Shown here: positions 5,463 to 39,802 of the stretch, piece after piece
Numbering within the stretch: the first letter of the stretch is position 1
How the letters are laid out: each line of letters starts with the position of its first letter
Assembly (NCBI RefSeq): GCF_050920415.1
Contig: NZ_CP169309.1
Length of the DNA stretch: 64,000 bases
Reading direction: 5' to 3' (one strand)
Origin: Escherichia coli
GTDB taxonomy: Bacteria; Pseudomonadota; Gammaproteobacteria; Enterobacterales; Enterobacteriaceae
Notes under the pieces: model-generated
Told to the model about the DNA's origin: nothing
Seen by the model: only the letters and a program-made list of their open reading frames with translations
Database searches by the model: none
Program-made: the position numbers and the translations under genes

Positions 5463-6374
5463 GTGAGTACATTAGAACAAACAATAGGCAATACGCCTCT
5501 GGTGAAATTACAACGAATGGGGCCGGATAACGGCAGTGAAGTGTGGTTAAAGCTGGAAGGCAATAATCCGGCCGGTTCGGTGAAAGATCGTGCGGCGCTT
5601 TCGATGATCGTCGAGGCGGAAAAGCGCGGGGAAATTAAACCGGGTGATGTGTTAATCGAAGCCACCAGTGGTAACACCGGGATTGCGCTGGCAATGATTG
5701 CCGCGCTAAAAGGCTATCGCATGAAATTGCTGATGCCCGATAACATGAGCCAGGAGCGTCGCGCGGCGATGCGTGCCTACGGTGCGGAGCTAATTCTGGT
5801 CACCAAAGAGCAGGGCATGGAAGGTGCGCGCGATCTGGCGCTAGAGATGGCGAATCGTGGCGAAGGCAAGCTGCTCGATCAGTTTAATAATCCCGATAAT
5901 CCTTATGCGCATTACACCACCACCGGGCCGGAAATCTGGCAGCAAACCGGCGGTCGCATTACCCATTTTGTCTCCAGCATGGGGACGACCGGTACGATTA
6001 CCGGCGTGTCGCGCTTTATGCGCGAGCAATCCAAACCGGTGACCATTGTTGGTCTGCAGCCGGAAGAGGGCAGCAGCATTCCCGGCATTCGTCGCTGGCC
6101 TGAGGAATATCTGCCAGGCATCTTCAACGCTTCGCTGGTGGATGAGGTGCTGGATATTCATCAGCGCGATGCGGAAAACACCATGCGCGAACTGGCAGTG
6201 CGGGAAGGGATTTTCTGCGGTGTAAGTTCCGGCGGCGCGGTTGCCGGAGCACTGCGGGTGGCAAAAGCCAACCCCGGCGCTGTAGTGGTGGCGATCATCT
6301 GCGATCGCGGCGATCGCTACCTTTCTACCGGGGTGTTTGGGGAAGAGCACTTTAGTCAGGGGGCGGGGATTTAA
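5463..6374 (+). CDS. cysM: cysteine synthase B (O-acetylserine sulfhydrylase B)
   Basis: 303 aa, PLP-lysine motif SVKDRAA, probable GTG start; downstream of cysA. Confidence 0.95.
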   Translation: MSTLEQTIGNTPLVKLQRMGPDNGSEVWLKLEGNNPAGSVKDRAALSMIVEAEKRGEIKPGDVLIEATSGNTGIALAMIAALKGYRMKLLMPDNMSQERRAAMRAYGAELILVTKEQGMEGARDLALEMANRGEGKLLDQFNNPDNPYAHYTTTGPEIWQQTGGRITHFVSSMGTTGTITGVSRFMREQSKPVTIVGLQPEEGSSIPGIRRWPEEYLPGIFNASLVDEVLDIHQRDAENTMRELAVREGIFCGVSSGGAVAGALRVAKANPGAVVVAIICDRGDRYLSTGVFGEEHFSQGAGI

Positions 6375-6410
6375 GGATTAATAGCATTGGAGGCTGATGA
6401 CAAACGCAAA

Positions 6411-6512
6411 ACTGCCTGATGCGCTACGCTTATCAGGCCTACAAGGTTCCTGTAATATATTGAATTAGCAATATTTTGTAGGCCGAATAAGGCGTTTACG
6501 CTGCATCTGGCA
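6411..6512. repeat. cluster of two REP elements
   Basis: gcctgatgcgctacgcttatcaggcctac and gtaggccgaataaggcgtttacgctgcatctggca in the cysM-yfeS intergenic region. Confidence 0.5.
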
Positions 6513-6578
6513 TAAACAAAGTGCACTTTGTCAATAATCTGCTTTGTCGGCAGTTGTTGCTGCCGACAAATGCAGTTT

Positions 6579-7313
6579 TTAATTTTCGTGTGGAAACGTA
6601 GTAAGGTCATCAATCATTTTTTGAAGTATTGGTGAGTCCTGACCATCACCCCATTGAAGAATTTTTGCGGTAAGCTGATGACGGGCTAGTGCATTGAGTC
6701 CCATCTTTTTAAGTTTATGGGAGATTTTACCCATGACTTTAATCTGACCGAATGCAGTTGCGTAGGTAATCATATTGCTCTGGATAGTGCTCATTTCATC
6801 GGCTAGTAATTGCGCACGAATATCCTCTTCAAGAATACTTTCCATAGCGATATATTTCATACCCCAGATAGTTTCAATTAACATTTGAGGGAAATCAGCA
6901 CAATCTAGATCCGGCTCTTTACGCAGGCTATTTTCAAGAACGTTTAGAGCATCAGCACCTTCATCGCTGCCAAAAGGTGATTCTTCATCCCAGCAACACA
7001 CATAAAGTGGATCAGTAAAATGGCACTGGAAGTTTGGGTGTGACGTTTTAACATGTAACCCAATTTCTTCATCATCAAAATAGTAGCGATCCATGTAGTT
7101 AAAGTTTGGATCTTCTTGATAGCCTTTCTTCATTTTTGCGGCAATCAATTTACTGGCTTCTTTCAGACACTGTTCTTCATTATCGAACTCTTTTGTCTGG
7201 AATTTACCAATATTACCTACCTTGCCATAGTTGATAGCTAAACTATCCCCTTCGTAATCTATCCACCAAAATTTATTCGATTTTTCATCGTTATAAATAA
7301 AGCATTTTTTCAT
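6579..7313 (-). CDS. yfeS: WGR-domain protein YfeS
   Basis: 244-aa ORF with N-terminal WGR-like segment (FWWIDYEGDSLAINYGKVGNIGKFQTKEF); synteny. Confidence 0.8.
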   Translation of the reverse strand: MKKCFIYNDEKSNKFWWIDYEGDSLAINYGKVGNIGKFQTKEFDNEEQCLKEASKLIAAKMKKGYQEDPNFNYMDRYYFDDEEIGLHVKTSHPNFQCHFTDPLYVCCWDEESPFGSDEGADALNVLENSLRKEPDLDCADFPQMLIETIWGMKYIAMESILEEDIRAQLLADEMSTIQSNMITYATAFGQIKVMGKISHKLKKMGLNALARHQLTAKILQWGDGQDSPILQKMIDDLTTFPHEN

Positions 7314-23552: not shown

Positions 23553-23610
23553 GCAGATAGTAAAAAAGCGCCTTTAGGGCGCTTTTTTACATTGGTGGGT
23601 CGTGCAGGAT
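23553..23610. repeat. terminator palindrome plus 18-nt copy of the tRNA-Lys 3' end (att-like direct repeat, copy 1)
   Basis: gcagatagtaaaaaagcgcctttagggcgcttttttacat followed by tggtgggtcgtgcaggat, identical to the first 18 nt of the lysV complement at 39727. Confidence 0.6.
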
Positions 23611-23707
23611 GACTCGCTTCGCTCGCCCTTCGGGCCGTCGCCGCGAGCGGCTCCGTTGTTTCGCTGCGCTCAACTCGAACCTGCTGCAGGTTCGAATCTT
23701 TGAGTAT

Positions 23708-23765
23708 CGCAGATAGCAAAAAAGCGCCTTTAGGGCGCTTTTTTACATTGGTGGGTCGTGCAGAA
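23708..23765. repeat. second tandem copy of the terminator/att-like repeat (island-proximal boundary)
   Basis: gcagatagcaaaaaagcgcctttagggcgcttttttacat followed by tggtgggtcgtgcag (15 nt of the tRNA-Lys 3' end); near-identical to copy 1, about 155 bp away. Confidence 0.6.
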
Positions 23766-23826
23766 TCCTTATTCAGACTCTAACCTTTTGAAAAATCAAG
23801 AGATATAACACTAACAACCATCACTG

Positions 23827-23851
23827 TGGGCCTAATTATAGGCCCATTTTT
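23827..23851 (+). terminator. hairpin plus T-run just inside the island boundary
   Basis: tgggcct-aattat-aggccca followed by ttttt on the plus strand. Confidence 0.4.
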
Positions 23852-23927
23852 GAAAGCTGCAAGTAAGAATTGATTTTGGTGATTTAAGTGCACAATTTTC
23901 AGGCAGCGCGGGAGTTGCAGCGGCATA

Positions 23928-24227
23928 TCAGGAGATCATTAACCCGGATTCACCTTCCACGATCACACCACCATGTTCGGTGGTATCTCCCATACGGGCA
24001 ACGGCTTTACCGTTAATTTTGAGAACCGTTGAACCGGAAACAATAGTGTCTTTGCTACCGCTACCTTTGCAGGTGAGCTTATCACCCACCAACGCCAGCG
24101 GAACACCATTATACGTAACAAAGGTCTGCTGACATTCACTGACCGGGCCACCAATATGTGGGCGGGGGCCGGGATCAACTTTCGGGCAGGTATGGTTATG
24201 TCCTTTGAGTACCACGGCTTTACTCAT
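23928..24227 (-). CDS. PAAR-domain protein (T6SS spike tip)
   Basis: ORF 23928..24317 trimmed to the ATG preceded by AGGAGA: 99 aa MSKAVVLKGHNHTCPKVDPGPRPHIGGPV...GVPLALVGDKL...GKAVARMGDTTEHGG, Gly/Pro-rich PAAR-like repeats; start overlaps the upstream gene stop by ATGA. Confidence 0.7.
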   Translation of the reverse strand: MSKAVVLKGHNHTCPKVDPGPRPHIGGPVSECQQTFVTYNGVPLALVGDKLTCKGSGSKDTIVSGSTVLKINGKAVARMGDTTEHGGVIVEGESGLMIS

Positions 24228-24982
24228 CGTCTGTTCTCCTGCGCAGTTTTTGTGAATATGTCCAGAAGTCGCCAGTAAGCATACTCCTGTTGTCCCAGAT
24301 TCAGGCAACCATACCACCGTGGATGCAGAGGATCATCAAAACAACGAAATCCGTCATAATATTGGGCTACTGCCAGTAGCACTTCGGCCTGTCCGCCGGA
24401 TTCATAGCGGGATAGCGCCCGCCTTGCACTAGCCATCAGTTGTCGGTATATATTTTCATATAGCTCAACTGTTGGCGAAAAAGCCGTTCTTTTTTCCACC
24501 GTATACAGGCGGGTGAAAATCTGACCACTCCCCAGCCAGGCATTGTGATATTGGGGGATAATGCAGTGAGGCGTATCCGGCCCCCAGGAATGTTTATAGT
24601 GTTCACTAAGCCAGTCAACAGACCAGTCATCTTTATGTGCTATCAGGTATGCAGGTATAGTCTCATCTTGCGGGGATGTCTTTGCACTAATGTAGTGTTC
24701 AACAATTTTCTGCAATTCCGTATAGCGGACATCCTCCATAAAAAACGATCCCAGGCACAATCTGGCACTGGCAATATGTATAGCAAGCAATTGATCAGGA
24801 ACTTTTTGAGTCTCAGTCCATTGATAGCTCTGTCTGATTAATTCATCAATAGCGGATGCGGGAAGCTTTCTGTCGGTAATAACCTTACCAAAGCGGTTTA
24901 CCAGCCAGACGCGGCCCTTTTTCAGAAATTCCATCATCCGGTGCTCCGCCAGACTACGGTAAGTTGCTTCTGTTATCCTCAT
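24224..24982 (-). CDS. hypothetical cytoplasmic protein, 252 aa (T6SS operon member; immunity candidate)
   Basis: Intact ORF with GGAGAG RBS about 9 nt upstream of the ATG; no TM segment or signal peptide; position only. Confidence 0.55.
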   Translation of the reverse strand: MRITEATYRSLAEHRMMEFLKKGRVWLVNRFGKVITDRKLPASAIDELIRQSYQWTETQKVPDQLLAIHIASARLCLGSFFMEDVRYTELQKIVEHYISAKTSPQDETIPAYLIAHKDDWSVDWLSEHYKHSWGPDTPHCIIPQYHNAWLGSGQIFTRLYTVEKRTAFSPTVELYENIYRQLMASARRALSRYESGGQAEVLLAVAQYYDGFRCFDDPLHPRWYGCLNLGQQEYAYWRLLDIFTKTAQENRR

Positions 24983-25014
24983 GACTTCAGCCTCTCCCTT
25001 ACGCTATTGCAACA

Positions 25015-33253: not shown

Positions 33254-34281
33254 AAAACGACACGCCCGATAGCGGAAAACGGAATGAGACACAGGCTCTG
33301 CGTGATGCCTGCTACGGCAATTTTTTTGCTGTCACCGATCTGCTGTACCGCAGTCGTGGCGATGCCATTTCACTGAGAACGGAACCGGAGCAGGAAACGG
33401 TTCATTTTCGTGCCAGTCCTGACATCGCGTTTCCCCTGCGGGATATTGAATCGCTGGAAAAAAATACCGCCGATCAGTACGTAATGACCACCCGATTTAT
33501 GGGGTTATCCGGCAGTTCATCACCATTGCCGGGTTACTATCTGGATGAGATGGCCTGGGTGCAGGCACAGGAAGGCGGCAGCACAACGGCGGATTTCCTG
33601 AACCTCTTCACCCACAGGTATACGCAATTTTTGTACCACATCTGGCGAAAATACCGCTGGTATATCAGTTTTCGTAATGGTGGAACGGATAAGATCTCAC
33701 AGCGGATCTATGCGCTTATCGGGCTGGGCAACCCGCGTGTACGGGAACGGCTGGATATCTGCCACAGCAGGCTGCTGGCTTACGCCGGAATATTATCCGG
33801 CCCCGGACGTTCACCGGCAATGATCTGCGATCTGATCGCACACTGTTTTGATCTGCATGATGTCAGACTGGAAAACTGGCAGTTTCGTCGGGTGGCTATT
33901 CCACCTGATCAGCAAACCCGGCTGGGAAGGTGTGAGCCGGATGCCGAAGGGAAGATGCAGGGTAAATCGGTGCTGGGCGTTAATTTTGTTCTCGGCTCGC
34001 GCGTACCGGATTACAGTGGGAAATTTATGTTGTGTATCAGTAACCTGTCACTGCCGCGATATATGGCCTTTTTGCCCGACGGTGAGGAATACCTGGCGCT
34101 GACCACCTTCGTGGCTTTCCTGTTGCGCGATCAGTTTGCCTGGGAGCTGCGGTTAAGTCTTGTGCCAGAGCAAATTGGTGGAATGCGGCTGGGGGATAAG
34201 AGAAGCTCTCAACTGGGGAGAACCAGTTTTATTGGTAAGCCGCCACGCGAACCCTTTGTGACCATACGGGTCAGGGGATAA
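33217..34281 (+). CDS. tssG: T6SS baseplate subunit TssG (ImpH/VasB family)
   Basis: 354 aa overlapping the tssF 3' end by 37 nt; conserved FMGLSGSSSPLPGYYLDEM block typical of TssG. Confidence 0.8.
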   Translation: MEGKNRSVPPDVENDTPDSGKRNETQALRDACYGNFFAVTDLLYRSRGDAISLRTEPEQETVHFRASPDIAFPLRDIESLEKNTADQYVMTTRFMGLSGSSSPLPGYYLDEMAWVQAQEGGSTTADFLNLFTHRYTQFLYHIWRKYRWYISFRNGGTDKISQRIYALIGLGNPRVRERLDICHSRLLAYAGILSGPGRSPAMICDLIAHCFDLHDVRLENWQFRRVAIPPDQQTRLGRCEPDAEGKMQGKSVLGVNFVLGSRVPDYSGKFMLCISNLSLPRYMAFLPDGEEYLALTTFVAFLLRDQFAWELRLSLVPEQIGGMRLGDKRSSQLGRTSFIGKPPREPFVTIRVRG

Positions 34282-34616
34282 AGCCTGTACTGGCAATTGT
34301 TCCGGCCTGCGCTTTGCGATCCGTCCTTCCAGAAAATCACTTGCCACCTTTTATGGGTCATTGTATCGTTGCGCCGCGTCTGCAAAATCAGGCGTCGGGA
34401 TTGGTCTCCCGGTTATAACTCGTTGACGGCATATGACATTTCTGTGTCATTTCTGTGCCGTGCGTTCGGCTGCACTTCTATGGTGGGGCCGGGTGGGGGC
34501 GTTGAAAGACGCGCCGGTTCCCAACGAGACCGGTAAGACCAACTCCGTCCGGTTCCACCACCCGTAAGATTGGTCTCTTCAGTGGTGGAAAATATATTCT
34601 CGTTGGAGGCCACATT

Positions 34617-35078
34617 ATGGCTGTTATTTCTGTTCATAAAGACGATTTACTTACCATCCCCTTCAGTGCCGCTACTGATTTCACCGATCTGGCTGCTCAC
34701 TGCGATCGCTTCGCCCAGACCCTGATCGAATGCCACAATCCTGCGCTAAAAATGGCGCTCTGTGGCAGGCTTAATACCTGCCTTGCACTGTTGCGGCCCA
34801 CGCTGAACGAGCCGATCCCGCCGCATCTGATTGACGGTTTTATTACGAATGATTTTCCCGATGTTTCACCCGGTTTTGAACCTGATGCAGAATCACTCTG
34901 CGATTACTGCCTGGCGCTGACACAGATACTGAATGGTCACTCACTGTTACCTGAAACCGAAACCACGCTGACCGGGCTGCTGTGCGAGCTGGTCTGGTAT
35001 TTTGCTGACAGTCTGAAAGCCCCGCACTGGATACGTACCGCTGACGGCGTACAGGTTATCGACGGGAGGCCAGCATGA
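34617..35078 (+). CDS. hypothetical protein, 153 aa, translationally coupled to the Ner-like gene
   Basis: Intact ORF; stop overlaps the next gene start (ATGA); no recognisable domain. Confidence 0.45.
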   Translation: MAVISVHKDDLLTIPFSAATDFTDLAAHCDRFAQTLIECHNPALKMALCGRLNTCLALLRPTLNEPIPPHLIDGFITNDFPDVSPGFEPDAESLCDYCLALTQILNGHSLLPETETTLTGLLCELVWYFADSLKAPHWIRTADGVQVIDGRPA

Positions 35079-35329
35079 TGCAGCCGGACTGGCATCCCGC
35101 TGATATTATCGCGGGACTGAGAAAACGGGGGACATCGCTGGCTAAGGTGTCCCGCAGCGCGGGACTGGCGTCCGCCACGCTGGCAAACGCGTTGACCCGT
35201 TCGTGGCCGCGCGGCGAAAAACTCATTGCGGATGCGCTGGAAACATCACCGGAAATTATCTGGCCCTCCAGATATTTCGATAATCAGGGCAACCGCATTG
35301 TAAGACTTATGCGAGAGCGGCGCTCCTGA
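35075..35329 (+). CDS. Ner/Nlp-family small DNA-binding protein
   Basis: 84 aa; DWHPADIIAGLRKRGTSLAKVSRSAGLASATLANAL resembles the Mu Ner / E. coli Nlp (SfsB) HTH family. Confidence 0.7.
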   Translation: MMQPDWHPADIIAGLRKRGTSLAKVSRSAGLASATLANALTRSWPRGEKLIADALETSPEIIWPSRYFDNQGNRIVRLMRERRS

Positions 35330-35365
35330 TGGCAGAAGCGTCAGATACAAGGTTACGGTAAAATA

Positions 35366-35409
35366 TCTCCCGGCTCTCTGCCTGCTTCTGCTGGCAGAGA
35401 GCCGGGAGA
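35366..35409 (+). terminator. strong stem-loop downstream of the Ner-like gene (17-bp perfect stem, no U-tract)
   Basis: tctcccggctctctgcc / ggcagagagccgggaga inverted repeat with about a 10-nt loop. Confidence 0.4.
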
Positions 35410-36219
35410 AGACAAGCGAAGCGCGGCAGTTTTTCAGTCACGAAGTAAGCAAACAATCTTTTAAACGCAAAAAACGTTTTTTCTTTCTGCGCCAGAAATA
35501 ACGGTGTAATCTCCCTCCTGCACTATGCCTTCGGGCACCCTTTGGCTTCATGGTCTGCAAGAAGCCCCTGATTTATCAGGACGACCAGCCCTTGCTACCG
35601 GTACGACCTCCGCAATACCGGAACGCGAAAGCGTTTGAGGCGAAGTAATTACACACCGGACAGCCCCATCGTCATCGTTTTACCGCAACGGCCTTCACTG
35701 GCTGCAAGGTTTCTCTTTGCCGGAATTTCTCCGGCCTGCTTATCCCCTGCTGATGACCAGCGCCTTTTACATGACGGGCTGCGGCCTGCATTGCCGTCAG
35801 GCTTTGCTGCCGCGTGACCGTTAATCTACCAGACTGTTAATTTTCGAATACTGCACCAGAAACGCAATGTTTACCCCTTGCACCAGACGAGGCGTCACTT
35901 TGATCGCGTCAGCGAAAAAGCAAAGTGACGCCGCACAACTCACCGCCGCAAGCCGCGCCAGTTCTGGCCTGCGCCCTGTTTCCGCCGTCTGACATGCCCT
36001 TTGGGGCCGTTGTCAGCTCAGAGTAAAGGAGAAAAAGATCGATACCGAGGGGGGCACGACGCCCCGGAGACACCCCTGCTTCGTCAGGCAGTCTGTACTG
36101 CGTACAGCCTGAAACTCCCTAAACCTCAACAAACTGCCACTCCGGCGTGAAGGTATCGTTCTGGCGCAGCCAAAAAGCACACGCCGGAGACTGTTTGTTT
36201 TTGTTGTCAGGGGAGAGTC

Positions 36220-37104
36220 ATGAGCAAATTAAGCAGTGAAATGAAGGCGCTGGCGAAGAAAGCGGGCGGCAGCTTCAAAACGGTGAATGATCGTATTCAT
36301 GCCACGAAGCGGTTCAGCCAGCATTTACGCGAACTGAATATCCAGATCCAGCGGGTGGAGCAGATCAAAGTTCGCCATATCGAATGCTACATTCAGGAGC
36401 GGCTGGAGCAGGATATTGGTTTACGCACGCTGCAAAACGAAATGGCGGCGCTGCGCTCCGTACTGAGACTGGCGGGACGCCGACAGGTGGTGGAGCATCC
36501 GCGCCTGACCAATAAGGCGCTGGGGCTGTCAGGCGCTTCGCGCAACGGCACGCGCCGCGCCATTACGCCGGAACATTATGAAAAAGTGATGGAGAGCGCC
36601 CGTGCACAGGATGCGGGGCTGGCGGCAGCGGTGGAGATTGCGCGGCTGATGGGATTACGCTCGCAGGAGGCGGTACAGAGTTCACAGTCGCTGAAAACGT
36701 GGCTGAAAGCCATTTCCCGCGGCGAAACCCGGCTGAAAGTGGTGTTTGGCACCAAAGGCGGGCGTCCACGTTACACAACGATCCTGGACGCTGGTGCAGT
36801 CAGAAAGGCGGTGGAAAACGCGTTACCGATCGCCAGACAGCGCAATGGCAGGCTGATCGACAGGCCTGACCTCAAAACAGCGCTGGAGAGCTGGCACAAA
36901 CAGGCCATTAAGGCGGGACTGAAGGGGGAATTTTCCCCGCACTCACTGCGTTATGCATGGGCACAGGACGCGATCCGTTATTATCTGGCGCAGGGATTCA
37001 GCGAAAAAGAATCCCTGGCGCTGACGGCAACGGATCTGGGCCACGGCGACGGTCGCGGCCGCTGGGTGAAACAGGTGTACGGCTACCGCTGGAAGGAGGA
37101 ATAA
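36220..37104 (+). CDS. tyrosine recombinase (phage integrase family)-like protein, 294 aa
   Basis: Catalytic-residue pattern consistent with tyrosine recombinases: GLRSQEA (box I Arg), HSLRYAWAQ (HxLR), C-terminal VYGYRW (Tyr). Confidence 0.6.
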   Translation: MSKLSSEMKALAKKAGGSFKTVNDRIHATKRFSQHLRELNIQIQRVEQIKVRHIECYIQERLEQDIGLRTLQNEMAALRSVLRLAGRRQVVEHPRLTNKALGLSGASRNGTRRAITPEHYEKVMESARAQDAGLAAAVEIARLMGLRSQEAVQSSQSLKTWLKAISRGETRLKVVFGTKGGRPRYTTILDAGAVRKAVENALPIARQRNGRLIDRPDLKTALESWHKQAIKAGLKGEFSPHSLRYAWAQDAIRYYLAQGFSEKESLALTATDLGHGDGRGRWVKQVYGYRWKEE

Positions 37105-37429
37105 CTGAATTCATGAATGGCGCAAAATAGTACGTTATTGTGTAATGACAGCAATCAGTCTGGCGCAGGGACCGGATGAAATAAAACAACCGGATACCTG
37201 CCGTTATCACTTAACAATATAGTGATAATATTGTTACTGTATGGCGAGTAAATATCAATAACCCAGACCTTCCTGCTTCATCAGTGTGTTTTTCTGGAAT
37301 ATTATAGTGATTACCCCTGTAATCACTCGAAACGTTCCCTATTGATAACAGGTGTTTTAATCGTTTTTACCGATACCACAGGACTGGGAAAATGTTAAAA
37401 TGCCAATTCACCAGAATTTCACATTAATT

Positions 37430-37920
37430 CTGGCGCAGGATTATATCTGAATAATTCTCTCCATGTTTTCCTGCATCCTGTGACATATATTGTATGCTCA
37501 CAGAATGTCTCATGATTTTATAAAAAATGCTGCGACAGTTTTTGACATCATTACCTGCTACATATAGATTAACAATCTTCGGTGCTTCATGTTGTTTTTT
37601 GCACTTTGTGATCATTATCAGGTGGTTAAAATACAATCTGGTGCAGACTGTCATGGCGCATTTCCAAATAAACTGGTTGCGCCAGAAAGGGAAAGGGTCA
37701 TAAAGGTTAAGGGGCAATAAGGGTAACAGCGCCTGACCGGAAAGGGCGGAAAACTAAAGGGCCAGAAACTGGCGCAGTCCTGAGTATTTTAAATCGCAGG
37801 ATGCTGGTGTAGATATCGGCTAATCCGAAATGGTGCAGGATTTTATCTCTGCGTATCTGGTGCGGTTCTTAAAGGTTGCAGGATATATTTTCATGATCAG
37901 GTTGTGGTGCAGATATTTTT
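37430..37920. repeat. array of iteron-like direct repeats (consensus about TGGTGCAGGATnTTATCT)
   Basis: ctggcgcaggattatatctg, tggtgcagactg, cgcaggatgctggtgtagatatcg, ggtgcaggattttatctctg, ggttgcaggatatatttt, ggtgcagatatttttg within about 500 bp of AT-rich ORF-poor DNA. Confidence 0.4.
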
Positions 37921-37972
37921 GCGTATTAATTGTTTTTTCCGTGAAATTATCGCTTATTGATAGATTTCCACC

Positions 37973-37998
37973 TGTTTTGATTTGCATGCAAATCAAAA
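37973..37998. promoter_or_regulatory. perfect 26-bp palindrome (candidate protein-binding site)
   Basis: gttttgatttgcatgcaaatcaaaac is its own reverse complement; a second dyad (aaattattcac-tg-gtgaataattt) lies at about 38045..38068. Confidence 0.4.
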
Positions 37999-38249
37999 CG
38001 GTCAGTTTCCTATTAATAAGGCGTTAATTAATAGGTTTTTACCCAAAATTATTCACTGGTGAATAATTTCGTACTATTTCCAATTAATAATAACAAACAC
38101 AATGGCAATACCTCTCAATACAAAAAAGCAGATCCCCGTCAATCAGGATCTGCTTTTCCATTTTTACAGAATTACATTATTTCTGACTCAGGCAGGCCTG
38201 TGTCACCAGGTATGGCTGATAACGGCTATTTCTGTTGCCATATGGAGCA

Positions 38250-39461
38250 CTATATTGCCCTTACAGTCACAGATGCCTCACTGATCTTCTGCCCCCACCA
38301 ATTCATCAGTTCCACACGCTGAACCAGGTAAACTGCGCGGTTGTAGGCAACACGTGTTGGATTTTCATCAATATGTGACAAAACTGCTTCCACCGCATCC
38401 GGCATAAATCCGGCTTCATGCAGCGCCGTACTGCCCAGCGCGCGGAAACCATGTGAAACCAACTCGCCGCCGTAACCCATCCGCCATAATGCCTTGTTGA
38501 CCGTCTCACTGTGCATTGGCTGGCTGCGTTTAACCCTGCCGGGAAAGACATACAGCGAATGCTCACTTAATGGCTTAAGCTGCGCCAATACCGACATTGC
38601 CTGTGGTGACAGTGGCACCTGGTGCTCACGCTTCATCTTCATGCGTTCAGCCGGGATAGTCCAGAGCCGTTTATCCATATCAATCTCACACCACATCGTT
38701 CCTGCGGCCTCAGCAGGGCGTACCAGGGTCAGGAGTTGCCATTGCAGCAATAACCGCGTCATGGGGCTTAAACAGGTTGTGTGGACCCGCTGCATGAGTT
38801 CCGGCAGACGCTCCGGGCGAATGGTCGGCATATGCTGCTTTTTCGGCTTCACGAATGCTTCATCAATGGTTGACGCCGGGTTTGCATCCAGCAGGCCTGT
38901 ATTAATGGCGAATTTCATGACCTCATTAATTCGCTGCGTCAGCCGGTGCAACGTCTCCAGCGTGCCACGCGCCCGTACAGGCTCCAGGGCGGAAATAAGC
39001 GTGTGCGCTTTCAGTTCTGTCACTGGCATCTGCCCAATGGCCGGGAACACATCGCGCTCCAGCGATCTCCAGATATCGTCTGCATAATCTTCGGAGATTC
39101 TGGTTTTCTTCACCGCGAACCATCTCGTCGCCACATTAATAAACAGGCTCTCCACCGCCAGCCGCTCCCGTTCGGCTTCCTCCTGCTCCAGTTTCTTTGG
39201 GTCAATACCTTTCACAAGCAGGGAAAGCTGTTCGGCGTGTAATGCGCGTGCGCTGGCAAGCGACATGGCAGGATAATGCCCGAGAGTGATGGTGGTTCGC
39301 GCAGTCGAATTTGGCCGTTTGTAACGAAAACGCCAGATCTTTTTACCGCTGGTTCTGACAAACAGGGTCAGCCCCTGCCCGTCAAACAGTTCGTAATCTT
39401 TATCAGAGGGTTTTGCTTTCTGGACTTCGCAAGCTGATAACGGACGGGTAAGAACAGCCAT
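38250..39461 (-). CDS. int: P4-type (tRNA-associated) tyrosine integrase
   Basis: 403 aa; N-terminal LSACEVQKAKPSDKDYELFDGQGLTLFV... block typical of P4-like integrases; gene ends 265 bp from the 3' end of tRNA-Lys. Confidence 0.9.
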   Translation of the reverse strand: MAVLTRPLSACEVQKAKPSDKDYELFDGQGLTLFVRTSGKKIWRFRYKRPNSTARTTITLGHYPAMSLASARALHAEQLSLLVKGIDPKKLEQEEAERERLAVESLFINVATRWFAVKKTRISEDYADDIWRSLERDVFPAIGQMPVTELKAHTLISALEPVRARGTLETLHRLTQRINEVMKFAINTGLLDANPASTIDEAFVKPKKQHMPTIRPERLPELMQRVHTTCLSPMTRLLLQWQLLTLVRPAEAAGTMWCEIDMDKRLWTIPAERMKMKREHQVPLSPQAMSVLAQLKPLSEHSLYVFPGRVKRSQPMHSETVNKALWRMGYGGELVSHGFRALGSTALHEAGFMPDAVEAVLSHIDENPTRVAYNRAVYLVQRVELMNWWGQKISEASVTVRAI

Positions 39462-39726
39462 ACAATCACTCCTTAAATGTCAGTTGAAAATGACAGTGAT
39501 TGAGTGGTGCAATATTTTGTTTTCTTGAAGTTTTTTCAGCAGGAAACTGAATATGGGCCTACAAGATTTCCACCGCCAGAAGCATAGGCCCATTCGTAGG
39601 CCCATTTGCTCTGGATTCCCCGAACCCCGGAGAGAAGCATACAGACGAAAAAAAACCGTATCCTGTTGACAGTGATACGGTTTTCTTACTTCCCCGGACT
39701 CTATGAGACATCCCAAGAATGTATGT

Positions 39727-39802
39727 TGGTGGGTCGTGCAGGATTCGAACCTGCGACCAATTGATTAAAAGTCAACTGCTCTACCAACTGAGCTAACGAC
39801 CC
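39727..39802 (-). tRNA. lysV: tRNA-Lys (anticodon UUU)
   Basis: Reverse complement reads GGGTCGTTAGCTCAGTTGGTAGAGCAGTTGACTTTTAATCAATTGGTCGCAGGTTCGAATCCTGCACGACCCACCA. Confidence 0.95.

Follow-up and report, generated by a model that had tools for sequence, protein, structure and literature searches.

A repeat- and hairpin-rich spacer beside a putative MOB_M-type relaxase gene in an Escherichia coli island as a candidate cis-acting region

We analyzed the 1.1-kb spacer at positions 37105–38249 of a 64,000-nucleotide stretch of Escherichia coli DNA (the window, meaning this whole stretch), which adjoins a relaxase-like gene and is rich in inverted repeats but lies downstream of that gene. Our best reading, held tentatively, is that the spacer is a putative cis-acting binding and hairpin region, located as a non-coding flank on the 3′ side of a mobilization module. 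Because the repeats and dyads are real, non-random, and conserved in relatives, it is reasonable to posit a cis-acting region that binds protein or forms hairpins, and a cis-acting role in island movement is more likely than the replication origin that the original prediction had put forward. The mobilization reading is supported by a short motif enriched with strict polarity, by linkage of the spacer to a MOB_M-like gene, by the mutual exclusion of this motif and the STAXI element, by a core kept across genera, and by compensatory changes in the hairpins. It is weakened because, within Escherichia, the motif copies do not exceed random 9-mers of the spacer in conservation, and because the known MOB_M oriTs are found 5′ of the relaxase gene and this region 3′ of it. 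MOB_M relaxases have only recently been recognized as very common in enterobacterial chromosomes, are usually misannotated as integrases, and have cis-acting sites known for only a handful of elements.

The spacer belongs to an island of about 16 kb (23592–39744), best read as integrated at the tRNA gene lysV and, by our proposal, mobilizable. Its framework is as follows.

36220–37104, plus strand: 294-aa tyrosine-recombinase-like protein, a putative MOB_M-type (MpsA/TcpM/MobK family) relaxase, matching PF12834 and PF12835
38193: right end of homology to tRNA-Asn islands (blastn against L002–L008), the end of the module travelling with the 294-aa gene
38250–39461, minus strand: P4-type integrase (int) of 403 aa, convergent with the 294-aa gene and with its start facing lysV (NCBIfam PRK09692, 521 bits)
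39726–39744: att repeat at the 3′ end of tRNA-Lys (lysV), whose 19-bp direct-repeat partner at 23592–23610 is the other island end

Besides the 294-aa protein and int, the island genes comprised T6SS cargo, hypothetical proteins, and an HTH protein, without Rep or primase, and a C4/CI-like RNA was present. The same spacer was found joined to Lys-type and to Asn-type integrases, which are only 35% identical; it thus travels with the 294-aa gene and not with the P4-type integrase. That it would hold arm sites of this integrase, as had been suggested, is unlikely because it is linked to the 294-aa gene and its array lies past the 3′ end of int, opposite to the att core and more than 1.4 kb from it; in P4 itself, the integrase arm repeats lie within about 460 bp of the core, five of six within about 160 bp. 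A nested att site, as expected of tandem islands, was rejected, as the spacer held no tRNA-Lys or tRNA-Asn fragment. The region matched E. coli DNA at 1148 places, every one of them chromosomal, spread over 578 genomes; 384 genomes matched over at least 80% of the query in one colinear place. No phage matches were obtained, and blastn against 72,556 plasmids returned one match only, in a Salmonella 473-kb record carrying the same module. Among complete E. coli genomes, about 10% carried the module, often with T6SS/Rhs effector cargo, and a dispersed repeat or MITE was rejected, given that all E. coli matches stood in the same module context, adjoining the homologous gene or its integrase.

The spacer contained 38.5% G+C compared with 57% in the adjoining 294-aa gene, bearing out its description as AT-rich, and the source genome annotation placed no feature between this gene and int. 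It was rightly called ORF-poor: no ORF was conserved, and every one of at least 35 codons was broken by stops or frameshifts in homologues. Blastx of the spacer against both recombinases gave no similarity (E ≥ 0.65), so that a coding or pseudogene origin was rejected, and the idea that the motif cluster is a decayed recombinase C terminus (W-A-Q-D-A-I-R-Y-Y-L-A-Q) was likewise unsupported.

The spacer does lie between the 294-aa gene and int, but the former, which the original prediction took for a recombinase, is better described as a putative MOB_M-type relaxase-like protein, judging from its sequence. Its Pfam matches reached E values of 3e-59 (PF12835, which serves as an MpsA-like signature) and 5e-40, and it was 49% identical (E = 2e-102) to WP_033567157.1 of SGI-4, a named MOB_M seed in a preprint; a sequence search of the PDB returned no match to it. 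Homology to MpsA/TcpM/MobK-type relaxases was thus found together with a P4-type int 1.1 kb away, a tRNA-Lys insertion, and a 19-bp direct repeat. Among known systems, the locus comes close to the mobilization modules of MOB_M relaxases (SGI1 oriT/sgm-sRNA/mpsA-mpsB, pIGRK oriT/mobK, pCW3 oriT/tcpM, and SGI-4) in having a tyrosine-recombinase-like PF12835 protein beside a conventional integrase. Published MOB_M oriT regions contain inverted and direct repeats, to which pIGRK adds an essential G-rich tract, and the SGI1 and pIGRK oriTs share these three features with the present spacer, a likeness of described features; blastn against the same 72,556 plasmids detected no similarity to any plasmid oriT region. 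The MOB_M oriTs described so far, all characterized upstream of the relaxase gene, differ in this from the downstream spacer studied here. The region upstream of the 294-aa gene, with the element listed below, would be the more orthodox oriT candidate.

36034–36162, plus strand: EFASI element (Rfam RF02957), directly 5′ of the 294-aa gene (cmscan, 99.2 bits; gathering score, 51.2)

EFASI preceded the gene across 93 related loci, at 56–140 nt 5′ of the homologous gene in nearly all 87 loci listed, and is part of the gene's conserved module. STAXI (Rfam RF01728), which comprises tandem hairpin/pseudoknot units near DNA-handling genes, behaved differently between clades. It was found in 0 of 29 loci of the clade with at least 70% identity, whereas in the other clades it lay upstream in 49 and downstream in 24 of 64 loci, always on the gene's strand. 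In the STAXI-free clade, CTGGYGCA copies stood at the STAXI positions, on the minus strand upstream and on the plus strand downstream, so that STAXI and the CTGGYGCAG motif were mutually exclusive between clades. Positions 37090–38260 gave no STAXI match at E ≤ 10 (relatives score 55–135 bits), and none was present anywhere in the window at the gathering score. k-mer counting in distant clades recovered no new repeat motif but STAXI units alone (CGCCTTCGGGTG). In relatives of less than 70% identity, STAXI sits at both of these places, 5′ of EFASI and 3′ of the gene, and, like the spacer, combines short conserved single-strand boxes with hairpins, in tandem and on the gene's strand; unit sequence and size differ. 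The replacement of STAXI by the motif is positional only, because the upstream motif copies are inverted and both STAXI copies direct. Two Rfam motifs that had been orphans, EFASI and STAXI, are thereby linked to relaxase-like genes.

The motif copies in and around the module were located as follows.

35484–35495, 35848–35859, 35875–35886, and 35950–35961, minus strand: four inverted CTGGYGCAG-type copies upstream of EFASI (motif search)
36161–36169, plus strand: copy CTGGCGCAG between EFASI and the start codon (motif search)
37117–37125, plus strand: copy ATGGCGCAA, the counterpart of the copy that comes first behind the stop codon in short-spacer genera
37160–37171, plus strand: copy CTGGCGCAGGGA (motif search)
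37430–37448, plus strand: long-form copy CTGGCGCAGGATTATATCT, with a column conservation of 0.93 in Escherichia
37638–37661, plus strand: copies CTGGTGCAG (37638) and ATGGCGCAT (37653), with conservation of 0.98 and 0.79
37804–37912, plus strand: cluster of five copies (37804, 37830, 37857, 37873, and 37904) spaced by 16–31 bp

TGGYGCAG occurred six times on the plus strand of 37105–38249 and never on the minus strand, against an expectation of 0.03, and none of 2000 dinucleotide shuffles of the region reached six; the formal motif count that had been called for thus confirmed the enrichment. Five exact copies, starting at 37431, 37639, 37770, 37831, and 37905, fell within 37430–37920, exactly where at least five same-orientation copies had been announced. 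When one to three mismatches to CTGGYGCAG(GAT) were allowed, 11 same-orientation copies were found from 37117 to 37912. The repeats were irregularly spaced, at 43, 270, 208, 15, 116, 35, 26, 27, and 47 bp. The conserved part of the motif was 9–12 bp, and the predicted extension to a TTATCT-like end did not hold in general: the long form TGGTGCAGGAT..TTATCT was complete in two copies only (37431–37448 and 37831–37848, 89% identical over 18 nt). Across the 29 loci of the clade with at least 70% identity, the downstream flank carried on average 4.1 motifs on the plus strand and 0.55 on the minus strand, while the upstream flank carried 3.2 on the minus and 1.3 on the plus strand. This clade retained the minus-strand copies located at about −1250 and −1220 relative to the end of the gene, and the position of the copy at 36161–36169 was retained down to Photorhabdus relatives of 54% identity.

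Within Escherichia, extra purifying selection on the motif copies was not detected, their conservation being 0.80 compared with 0.78 for random spacer 9-mers (P = 0.36). This lack of excess conservation is one of the observations behind the main competing explanation, itself unlikely, in which the spacer is largely non-functional mosaic DNA at a cargo-turnover hotspot at the module end. Its repeats and palindromes would then be products of duplication, slippage, or repair on hairpin templates that have been retained through descent, with only the terminator, and perhaps a core of about 100 nt, being functional. The 1.1-kb size is indeed confined to Escherichia, the gap measuring 100–350 bp in other genera, and beyond the cross-genus core the spacer is Escherichia-specific and mosaic, with blocks replaced, duplicated, or deleted between islands. 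Some E. coli islands carry two copies of a repeat module whose motif half is the cluster at 37804–37912; a segment of about 37742–37995 was duplicated in L005–L008 and L088–L091. The 294-aa gene, int, or both were pseudogenes in many E. coli copies of the module, so that much of the spacer similarity may reflect shared ancestry and not selection. Seven loci of the same protein clade lacked the downstream array, homology ending right after the catalytic-Tyr codons, and the downstream flank is therefore dispensable for the 294-aa gene. In other lineages, unrelated small genes occupied the equivalent place. Drift alone, however, would not be expected to yield the motif polarity, the 200-fold enrichment, or the recurrence of motif copies in non-homologous blocks, as seen in the replacement blocks of E. 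albertii and E. coli M3; nor does mosaic DNA readily accommodate a core element conserved across genera and hairpin pairing that survives many double substitutions. Should the region prove inert, it would be a clear case of repeat-rich mosaic DNA at a cargo hotspot and not a replication origin.

Conservation across genera was limited to an AAGGG-rich element of about 100 nt, a few motif copies, and the terminator, listed here with a neighboring promoter-like site.

37542–37570, plus strand: sigma-70 promoter-like site TTGACA-17-TAGATT, directed toward the AAGGG-rich element (10 of 12 consensus matches)
37674–37790, plus strand: AAGGG-rich element with six GGG runs (76% purine on the plus strand)
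38124–38157: intrinsic terminator hairpin with 12-bp arms, nearly invariant in alignment A1 and found in other genera too

The AAGGG-rich element had an invariant core, TAAGGGTAACAGCGCC..ACCGGAAAGGGC, and its 3′ end was itself a motif copy (CTGGCGCAG, 37769). Together with three to four motif copies and the terminator, it was kept in Klebsiella, Cedecea, Citrobacter, Pseudocitrobacter, Erwinia, Serratia, and Salmonella arizonae, in which the remaining intergenic DNA was unrelated, and other E. coli contexts likewise had it 3′ of the homologous gene. The terminator serves mainly the integrase gene, because its T-run is stronger on the minus strand. Both hexamers of the promoter-like site were mostly retained in alignment A1. 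This conservation, with 10 of 12 consensus matches, is compatible with an element acting at the RNA level, the spacer being transcribed either from 37542 or within an extended 3′ UTR of the 294-aa gene, and its purine-rich tract and hairpins serving as a stability or termination signal, a convergent-gene insulator, or an sRNA analogous to the SGI1 sgm-sRNA. We consider such a role improbable, though by no means negligible. As RNA, positions 37575–37800 folded at z = −2.3 on the plus strand versus −1.5 on the minus strand, the hairpin units described below folded as well or better on the plus strand in most cases, and G-T mismatches outnumbered A-C mismatches in these units (21 versus 10); moreover, SGI1 requires a small RNA encoded beside mpsA, and the neighboring motifs EFASI and STAXI were described as RNAs. 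Against an RNA-level role, no Rfam family matched the spacer even at E ≤ 10, other than spuriously, and a structured RNA in the cross-genus core was rejected after RNAalifold returned 9 pairs with almost no covariation (term, −0.19). In addition, the long-range helix predicted in E. coli is impossible in the short-spacer genera, and the covariation signal of a DNA palindrome is the same as that of an RNA hairpin.

The palindromes at the module's 3′ end proved to be the centers of longer imperfect palindromes.

37953–38020: hairpin unit A, with 34-nt imperfect arms, outer boxes TTATTGATAG and CTATTAATAA, and an inner perfect palindrome at 37974–37999
38027–38088: hairpin unit B, with 30-nt imperfect arms and inner 11-bp arms at 38046–38056 and 38059–38069

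The perfect 26-bp palindrome and the 11-bp-arm dyad that had been predicted thus exist, but each begins one position later than reported (37973–37998 and 38045–38068, respectively), the dyad now ending at 38069. The units measured about 62–68 bp and occurred in one to three tandem copies; the L005 counterpart of unit B had 31-nt arms that were 97% complementary. Unit A belongs to a family with 21 aligned copies, in whose alignment 89% of cells were paired compared with 34–53% when the partners were slid. Double-sided change was found in 8 of 13 pairs of the inner helix, and compensatory cells numbered 78 versus 31 ± 4 in shuffles. Compensatory change in the hairpin units was thus strong. Folded as DNA, the hairpin region gave z values of −5.4 and −5.0 on the two strands.

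The hairpin units resemble integron attC sites in being imperfect palindromes with conserved outer boxes and variable self-complementary inner stems, in standing in tandem beside a tyrosine-recombinase-type gene, and in that some blocks carry small genes in other lineages. They differ in that the 294-aa protein is not of the IntI type and most units flank no ORF; an attI-like site, an extrahelical-base pattern, and cassette shuffling were not seen. It appears to us rather improbable that the spacer is a site-specific recombination platform, with CTGGYGCAG serving the tyrosine-recombinase-like protein as its site of crossover or nicking and the intervening blocks representing segments captured as in integron cassettes or tandem accretion. 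Block boundaries often fell within 14 nt of a motif copy (in spacer coordinates, boundary and motif at 51 and 57, 533 and 535, 319 and 327, 521 and 535, 742 and 754, and 807 and 801), but BLAST end points are imprecise, and with 10 motifs in 800 bp about one-third of random points lie equally close. In Serratia L012, homology broke inside a motif; in Cedecea L017, the 18-bp repeat GTGCAAATAAAAAGCAGA, of which the end of the motif is a part, stood on either side of an inserted gene; and in E. albertii, a 95-aa ORF lay in a block bounded by motif copies, of which 37638 marks the right breakpoint of the replaced block. No remnant of this ORF was found in the spacer by tblastn. However, inverted half-site pairs with a 6- to 8-bp spacer, the canonical core, were not seen, most E. 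coli blocks lacked a gene, and neither circular intermediates nor alternative orders were observed. It is still less probable, to the point of being barely credible, that the spacer acts as a promoter switch that one of the two recombinases inverts. A tyrosine recombinase-like gene does adjoin, and a perfect 10-bp inverted repeat pair, TTCTGGCGCA / TGCGCCAGAA (37428–37437 / 37678–37687), brackets the promoter-like site; TATCAATAA / TTATTGATA (37253 / 37954) is another candidate pair. Yet all 17 fetched Escherichia and Salmonella copies were colinear, with minus-strand matches confined to palindromes, the 384 genomes mentioned above were likewise colinear, and the "inverted" arm aligned to an ordinary direct motif copy in other genera.

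An iteron-type replication origin, or a P4-like ori/crr, is very improbable. AT-rich DNA, short direct repeats, and dyads fit it, and so do the P4-type integrase and the C4/CI-like RNA of the island; the P4 crr, too, lies just downstream of its replication gene. Nevertheless, the initiator is missing: the island has no Rep or primase gene, and the 294-aa protein has a tyrosine-recombinase fold. The DnaA box consensus TTWTNCACA was unmatched on either strand of the spacer, the 9- to 12-bp repeats are irregularly spaced, whereas iterons are about 17–22 bp long and helically phased, and the distribution is chromosomal apart from the single Salmonella record. The P4 crr/ori, with type-1 iterons bound by the alpha protein, shares with the spacer tandem direct repeats, short boxes in both orientations, and a location close to a P4-type int and att, immediately 3′ of the gene for a replication or transfer protein. 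It differs in that the alpha primase is absent here, and it was rejected as a match: the spacer held one octamer with a single mismatch to the type-1 repeat (TGTTCACC), that is, 0.87 per kb compared with 1.2 in the window, the Smith-Waterman score against crr was 22 versus 19 ± 2.7 in shuffles, and the neighboring proteins were not homologous to P4 ORF151 or ORF106.

Returning to the proposed mobilization module, its anatomy runs from inverted CTGGYGCAG copies through EFASI and the MOB_M-type gene to direct copies and the AAGGG-rich element, and closes with one to three tandem hairpin units and the terminator. We propose that the CTGGYGCAG(GAT) copies, at 9–12 bp of the size of a single recombinase half-site, would bind a protein encoded by the module, for which the 294-aa protein is the likeliest, though only a possible, candidate, and would fill the STAXI positions of more distant relatives. 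Motif copies and the G-rich tract would assemble a nucleoprotein complex around the gene, which would serve nicking or transfer, or its control. The hairpin units would act as folded DNA, either as a cruciform or as single-strand hairpins during transfer; alternatively, they would act as RNA hairpins. A large STAXI-less MOB_M-like clade thus bears a polarized 9- to 12-bp motif array, a cross-genus G-rich element, and a structure-conserving hairpin family, and the spacer supplies candidate protein-binding, nick, or hairpin signals. A bolder version, which we hold to be doubtful, makes CTGGYGCAG the single-monomer binding and nicking site of a MOB_M relaxase, with arrays of opposite polarity on either side of the gene and the tandem 62- to 68-bp hairpin units forming a transfer or recombination region of a type not described before. 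This region would functionally replace STAXI and double as a cassette-like insertion platform for swapping small genes and non-coding blocks. If this were true, EFASI and STAXI, listed as RNA motifs in Rfam, would belong to MOB_M oriT regions as parts acting at the DNA or RNA level. We regard resemblances to the XerC arm of dif (GGTGCGCATAA), an NtrC half-site (TGGTGCA), the att core of lysV (TGGTGGGTCGTGCAGGAT), and the nic region of MOB_Q (GGTAAGTGCGCC) as leads only.

The spacer between the two recombinase genes, 37105-38249, lies in a ~16-kb island (about 16.1 kb) that is inserted at the 3′ end of the tRNA-Lys gene lysV and carries T6SS genes (PAAR, VgrG, tssF/tssG) plus two small genes. 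The spacer and its surroundings contain repeats of a motif, CTGGYGCAG(GAT), and the main features are as follows.

23592-23610 and 39726-39744, 19-bp direct repeat bounding the island, TGGTGGGTCGTGCAGGAT(+1)
35484, 35848, 35875 and 35950, - strand, motif copies upstream of the 294-aa gene
36034-36162, EFASI (Rfam RF02957), 58 nt upstream of the 294-aa gene
36220-37104, + strand, 294-aa 'integrase domain' gene, intact in the window
37674-37790, AAGGG-rich element of ~100 nt, + strand 76% purine, with six GGG runs and the invariant core TAAGGGTAACAGCGCC..ACCGGAAAGGGC
38250-39461, - strand, P4-type integrase gene, intact in the window

Because the two genes are convergent, the spacer is downstream of both, and it contains no annotated feature. 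It is indeed AT-rich (38.5% G+C versus ~57% in the adjacent gene) and ORF-poor, as every ORF of at least 35 codons is broken in homologues; blastx of the spacer against either recombinase found no similarity. Six copies of TGGYGCAG lie on the + strand of the spacer and none on the - strand, compared with 0.03 in dinucleotide shuffles of the region, none of 2000 of which reached six. A whole-window scan identified nine consecutive + strand copies from 36162 to 37905, and 11 same-orientation copies of CTGGYGCAG(GAT) were found at 37117-37912 when mismatches were allowed. Thus, the same-orientation array of the original prediction stands, while the long form of the motif given with it is complete in two copies only. 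The perfect 26-bp palindrome and the 11-bp-arm dyad are likewise present, each one base away from its predicted position (37974-37999, and arms 38046-38056 and 38059-38069), and they centre larger imperfect palindromes at 37953-38020 and 38027-38088, hereafter hairpin units. The arrangement is therefore real, non-random and previously undescribed, but the label first put on it, a replication origin, was wrong. An origin is contradicted by the lack of an initiator gene and a DnaA box, by irregular spacing of the repeats and by occurrence in chromosomes only, and arm sites of the P4-type integrase are disfavoured by the linkage and position of the spacer. P4 ori/crr was rejected too: P4 crr does lie directly downstream of the alpha gene, but type-1 octamers were not enriched, the alignment score fell within that of shuffles, and the neighbouring proteins were not homologous to P4 ORF151 or ORF106. 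An invertible switch was rejected because only colinear copies were found, a nested att site was rejected as well, and no known Rfam family matches the spacer. TGGTG...GTGCAGGAT is common to the island att core and the spacer motif TGGTGCAGGAT, probably by coincidence, given that tRNA-Asn islands carry the same motif.

The 294-aa protein matched an N-terminal SAM-like domain (PF12834, E 5e-40) and the catalytic domain PF12835 (E 3e-59), and only weakly the generic phage-integrase family and XerC/XerD models. Among 12 diverse homologues, R147, K179, H241, R244, H275 and Y287 were invariant, falling in GLRSQE, TKGGRPR, HSLRYA and LGH...QVY blocks; judged by position, these would constitute the tyrosine-recombinase catalytic set. 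PF12835 is the signature used by the Burrus laboratory for the atypical relaxase of SGI1 MpsA type (PMC10484663). A 2026 preprint of the Rocha laboratory defined the MOB_M relaxase family (TcpM, MobK, MpsA) and reported that its members are frequent on chromosomes, carry integrase annotations and adjoin an integrase in 96% of cases. One of its seeds, WP_033567157.1, is a protein of SGI-4 whose gene lies beside ICE mating-pore genes, and the window protein is 49% identical to it over the full length (E 2e-102). On the basis of the PF12835 signature and this seed identity, we treated the 294-aa gene as a putative MOB_M-type relaxase gene and the island as a putative mobilizable element.

Spacer homologues were found in 578 of the 5,426 complete E. 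coli genomes, at no more than six places per genome, all of them chromosomal and nearly all without annotation. No phage matched, and the plasmid collection yielded a single 473-kb Salmonella record. In tRNA-Asn and tRNA-Asp islands, the 294-aa gene, spacer, terminator (38124-38157 in the window) and P4-type integrase follow in the same order. Homology between the window and the tRNA-Asn islands ends at 38193, just beyond the terminator, and the integrases of those islands share only 35% identity with that of the window, indicating that the spacer is part of the module of the 294-aa gene and not of the integrase. In many E. coli copies (L002-L008 and L088-L093, islands at tRNA-Asn and tRNA-Asp), the annotation gives the MOB_M-type gene, the P4-type integrase or both as pseudogenes, with frameshifts, internal stops or IS interruptions, and the spacer is retained. 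Some E. coli islands have shrunk to the integrase, spacer and 294-aa gene, adjoining yeeJ.

The layout of the wider family was then compared. Nearly all of 87 loci listed had an EFASI match upstream of the MOB_M-type gene, at a distance of 56-140 nt and invariably on the same strand as the gene. Of the 64 loci from relatives of below 70% identity, 49 carried another orphan motif, STAXI (RF01728), beyond EFASI on the upstream side and 24 carried it downstream of the gene, in every case on the gene's strand; SGI-4 is one of the carriers. STAXI consists of tandem units, each a short box plus a hairpin. None of the 29 loci of the window's clade had STAXI, and STAXI did not match the spacer region even at E ≤ 10. 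Both STAXI positions in these 29 loci instead held TGGYGCA copies, averaging 3.2 per locus on the - strand versus 1.3 on the + strand upstream and 4.1 on the + strand versus 0.55 on the - strand downstream. Thus, the spacer array forms half of a polarised repeat array that extends on both sides of EFASI and the gene and takes the positions that STAXI has in other clades. In SGI1, the oriT and sgm-sRNA occupy an upstream position equivalent to that of EFASI/STAXI, which raises the possibility that EFASI and STAXI serve MOB_M modules as parts of an oriT or sRNA; no paper linking EFASI to relaxases was found in a full-text literature search. The four inverted motif copies of the window lie in a second large non-coding stretch, 35330-36033 (~700 bp, G+C-rich), between the gene of an 84-aa HTH protein and EFASI. 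By analogy with SGI1, SGI-4 and pIGRK, this would be a more orthodox place for an oriT than the spacer.

Column identity within Escherichia was similar for the spacer (0.74-0.95) and the gene (0.80-0.96), which may reflect shared descent, as many copies hold pseudogenes. Scanning one genome per species gave 77 loci. The 1.1-kb gap is specific to Escherichia, other genera having ~100-350 bp. The AAGGG-rich element, three or four same-orientation CTGGYGCA copies and the terminator are kept in Klebsiella indica, Cedecea, Citrobacter, Pseudocitrobacter, Erwinia mallotivora, Serratia and Salmonella arizonae. RNAalifold detected almost no covariation in the AAGGG element, so that it is the sequence that is conserved and not a demonstrable fold. 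Seven other loci of the window's protein clade (L013, L014, L016, L018 and L020-L022) lose homology immediately past the catalytic-Tyr codons (..GCGCAGGTnTATGGG) and continue into unrelated cargo; hence, the downstream flank is not indispensable. Four of them (L014, L016, L018 and L022) show a different module order, with the P4-type integrase upstream on the same strand.

Spacer blocks have also been exchanged between islands. E. albertii carries unrelated DNA at spacer positions 44-533, again with motif copies and with a 95-aa ORF (L010 2991-3278, -) between its own CGTTACTGCGTAACG palindromes, where the window has only non-coding DNA (about 37149-37636); the ORF weakly matched IncL/M RepC-type small regulators (E 0.026). 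Several block replacements were seen in E. coli M3, the Cedecea insert is bounded by an 18-bp repeat, GTGCAAATAAAAAGCAGA, that takes in the end of the motif, and the Serratia homology break falls inside a motif copy. Small unrelated genes lie between the AAGGG element and the terminator in Cedecea (L017, ~6045-6830) and Serratia (L012, ~5985-6545), namely a 189-aa P-loop-like ORF on the - strand and an ORF of ~90 aa. Six of about nine block breakpoints were within 14 nt of a motif copy, an association that is only suggestive, since roughly one-third would be expected to lie so close at random and BLAST does not place end points exactly. That the spacer serves as a cassette-like recombination platform seems improbable to us.

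From the motif polarity, the recurrence of the motif in unrelated blocks, its cross-genus conservation beside a G-rich core, the STAXI exclusivity and the linkage to a relaxase-like gene, we infer, tentatively, that the likeliest role of the spacer is that of a cis-acting part of the mobilization module, with the motif copies as candidate binding sites. Each copy, having the size of one recombinase half-site, would be bound by a module protein, probably the 294-aa protein, and the hairpin units would act as folded-DNA or RNA signals. Published MOB_M oriT regions resemble the spacer in combining inverted and direct repeats, to which pIGRK adds an essential G-rich tract; however, they lie upstream of the gene and the spacer downstream. 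The cis-acting reading is further weakened by the lack of excess conservation of motif copies within Escherichia, by the missing flank in some relatives and by the many copies in decaying modules. Largely inert mosaic DNA is an unlikely alternative. The arrangement supplies testable cis-element candidates for a recently recognised, very common relaxase family, to which the orphan motifs EFASI and STAXI are now linked.

The hairpin units form a family of their own. Islands differed in the length of DNA between the AAGGG core and the terminator (261-714 bp), chiefly owing to the copy number of a module comprising several motif copies and one hairpin unit, which occurs singly or in duplicate and is followed by a further hairpin unit. 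Aligned in register, 21 units from 11 islands have outer boxes (TTATTGATAG ... CTATyrATAA) and a TTTTCAyC segment in common and differ in the inner stem (GTTTTGATTTGCA|TGCAAATCAAAAC in the window, TTCCGTGATTAACG|CGTTAATCACGGAA in the tRNA-Asn island L003 and, as a further example, CCAAAATTATTCAC..GTGAATAATTTTGG). For 24 specified pairs, 89% of cells were paired versus 34-53% with partners slid, 8 of 13 inner-helix pairs had changed on both sides, and 78 cells were compensatory versus 31 ± 4 in shuffles. DNA folding of the window hairpin region gave z = -5.4 and -5.0 for the two strands. These data show selection for self-complementarity and not its cause, as the covariation would look no different for a symmetric protein-binding site. 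Mismatches were more often G-T (21) than A-C (10), and the + strand folded slightly better in most units, a weak hint that it is the folding strand. A promoter-like site at 37542-37570 and a + strand RNA fold of z = -2.3 are in favour of the spacer acting at the RNA level, which we nevertheless consider quite doubtful.

Elsewhere in the island, an RtT RNA match (23593-23718, -, 51.6 bits), also annotated by RefSeq, starts at the distal att repeat and is probably tRNA-like repeat sequence at the island junction rather than a tyrT-derived RNA. Matches to isrK (34376-34454, +, 53 bits) and to a C4/P4-CI-type antisense RNA (34476-34565, +, 68 bits) lie directly upstream of the genes for a 153-aa and the 84-aa protein. 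The pair recurs in L011 and in Cedecea, with a C4 copy downstream of the gene in two further loci (L024 and L030), which suggests a P1/P4-like immunity cassette tied to the module. The 84-aa HTH protein (35075-35329, +) lacks homology to P4 ORF106 and matched the SfsB/Nlp (Ner-like) regulator model at E 1.7e-33, under the curated cut-off.
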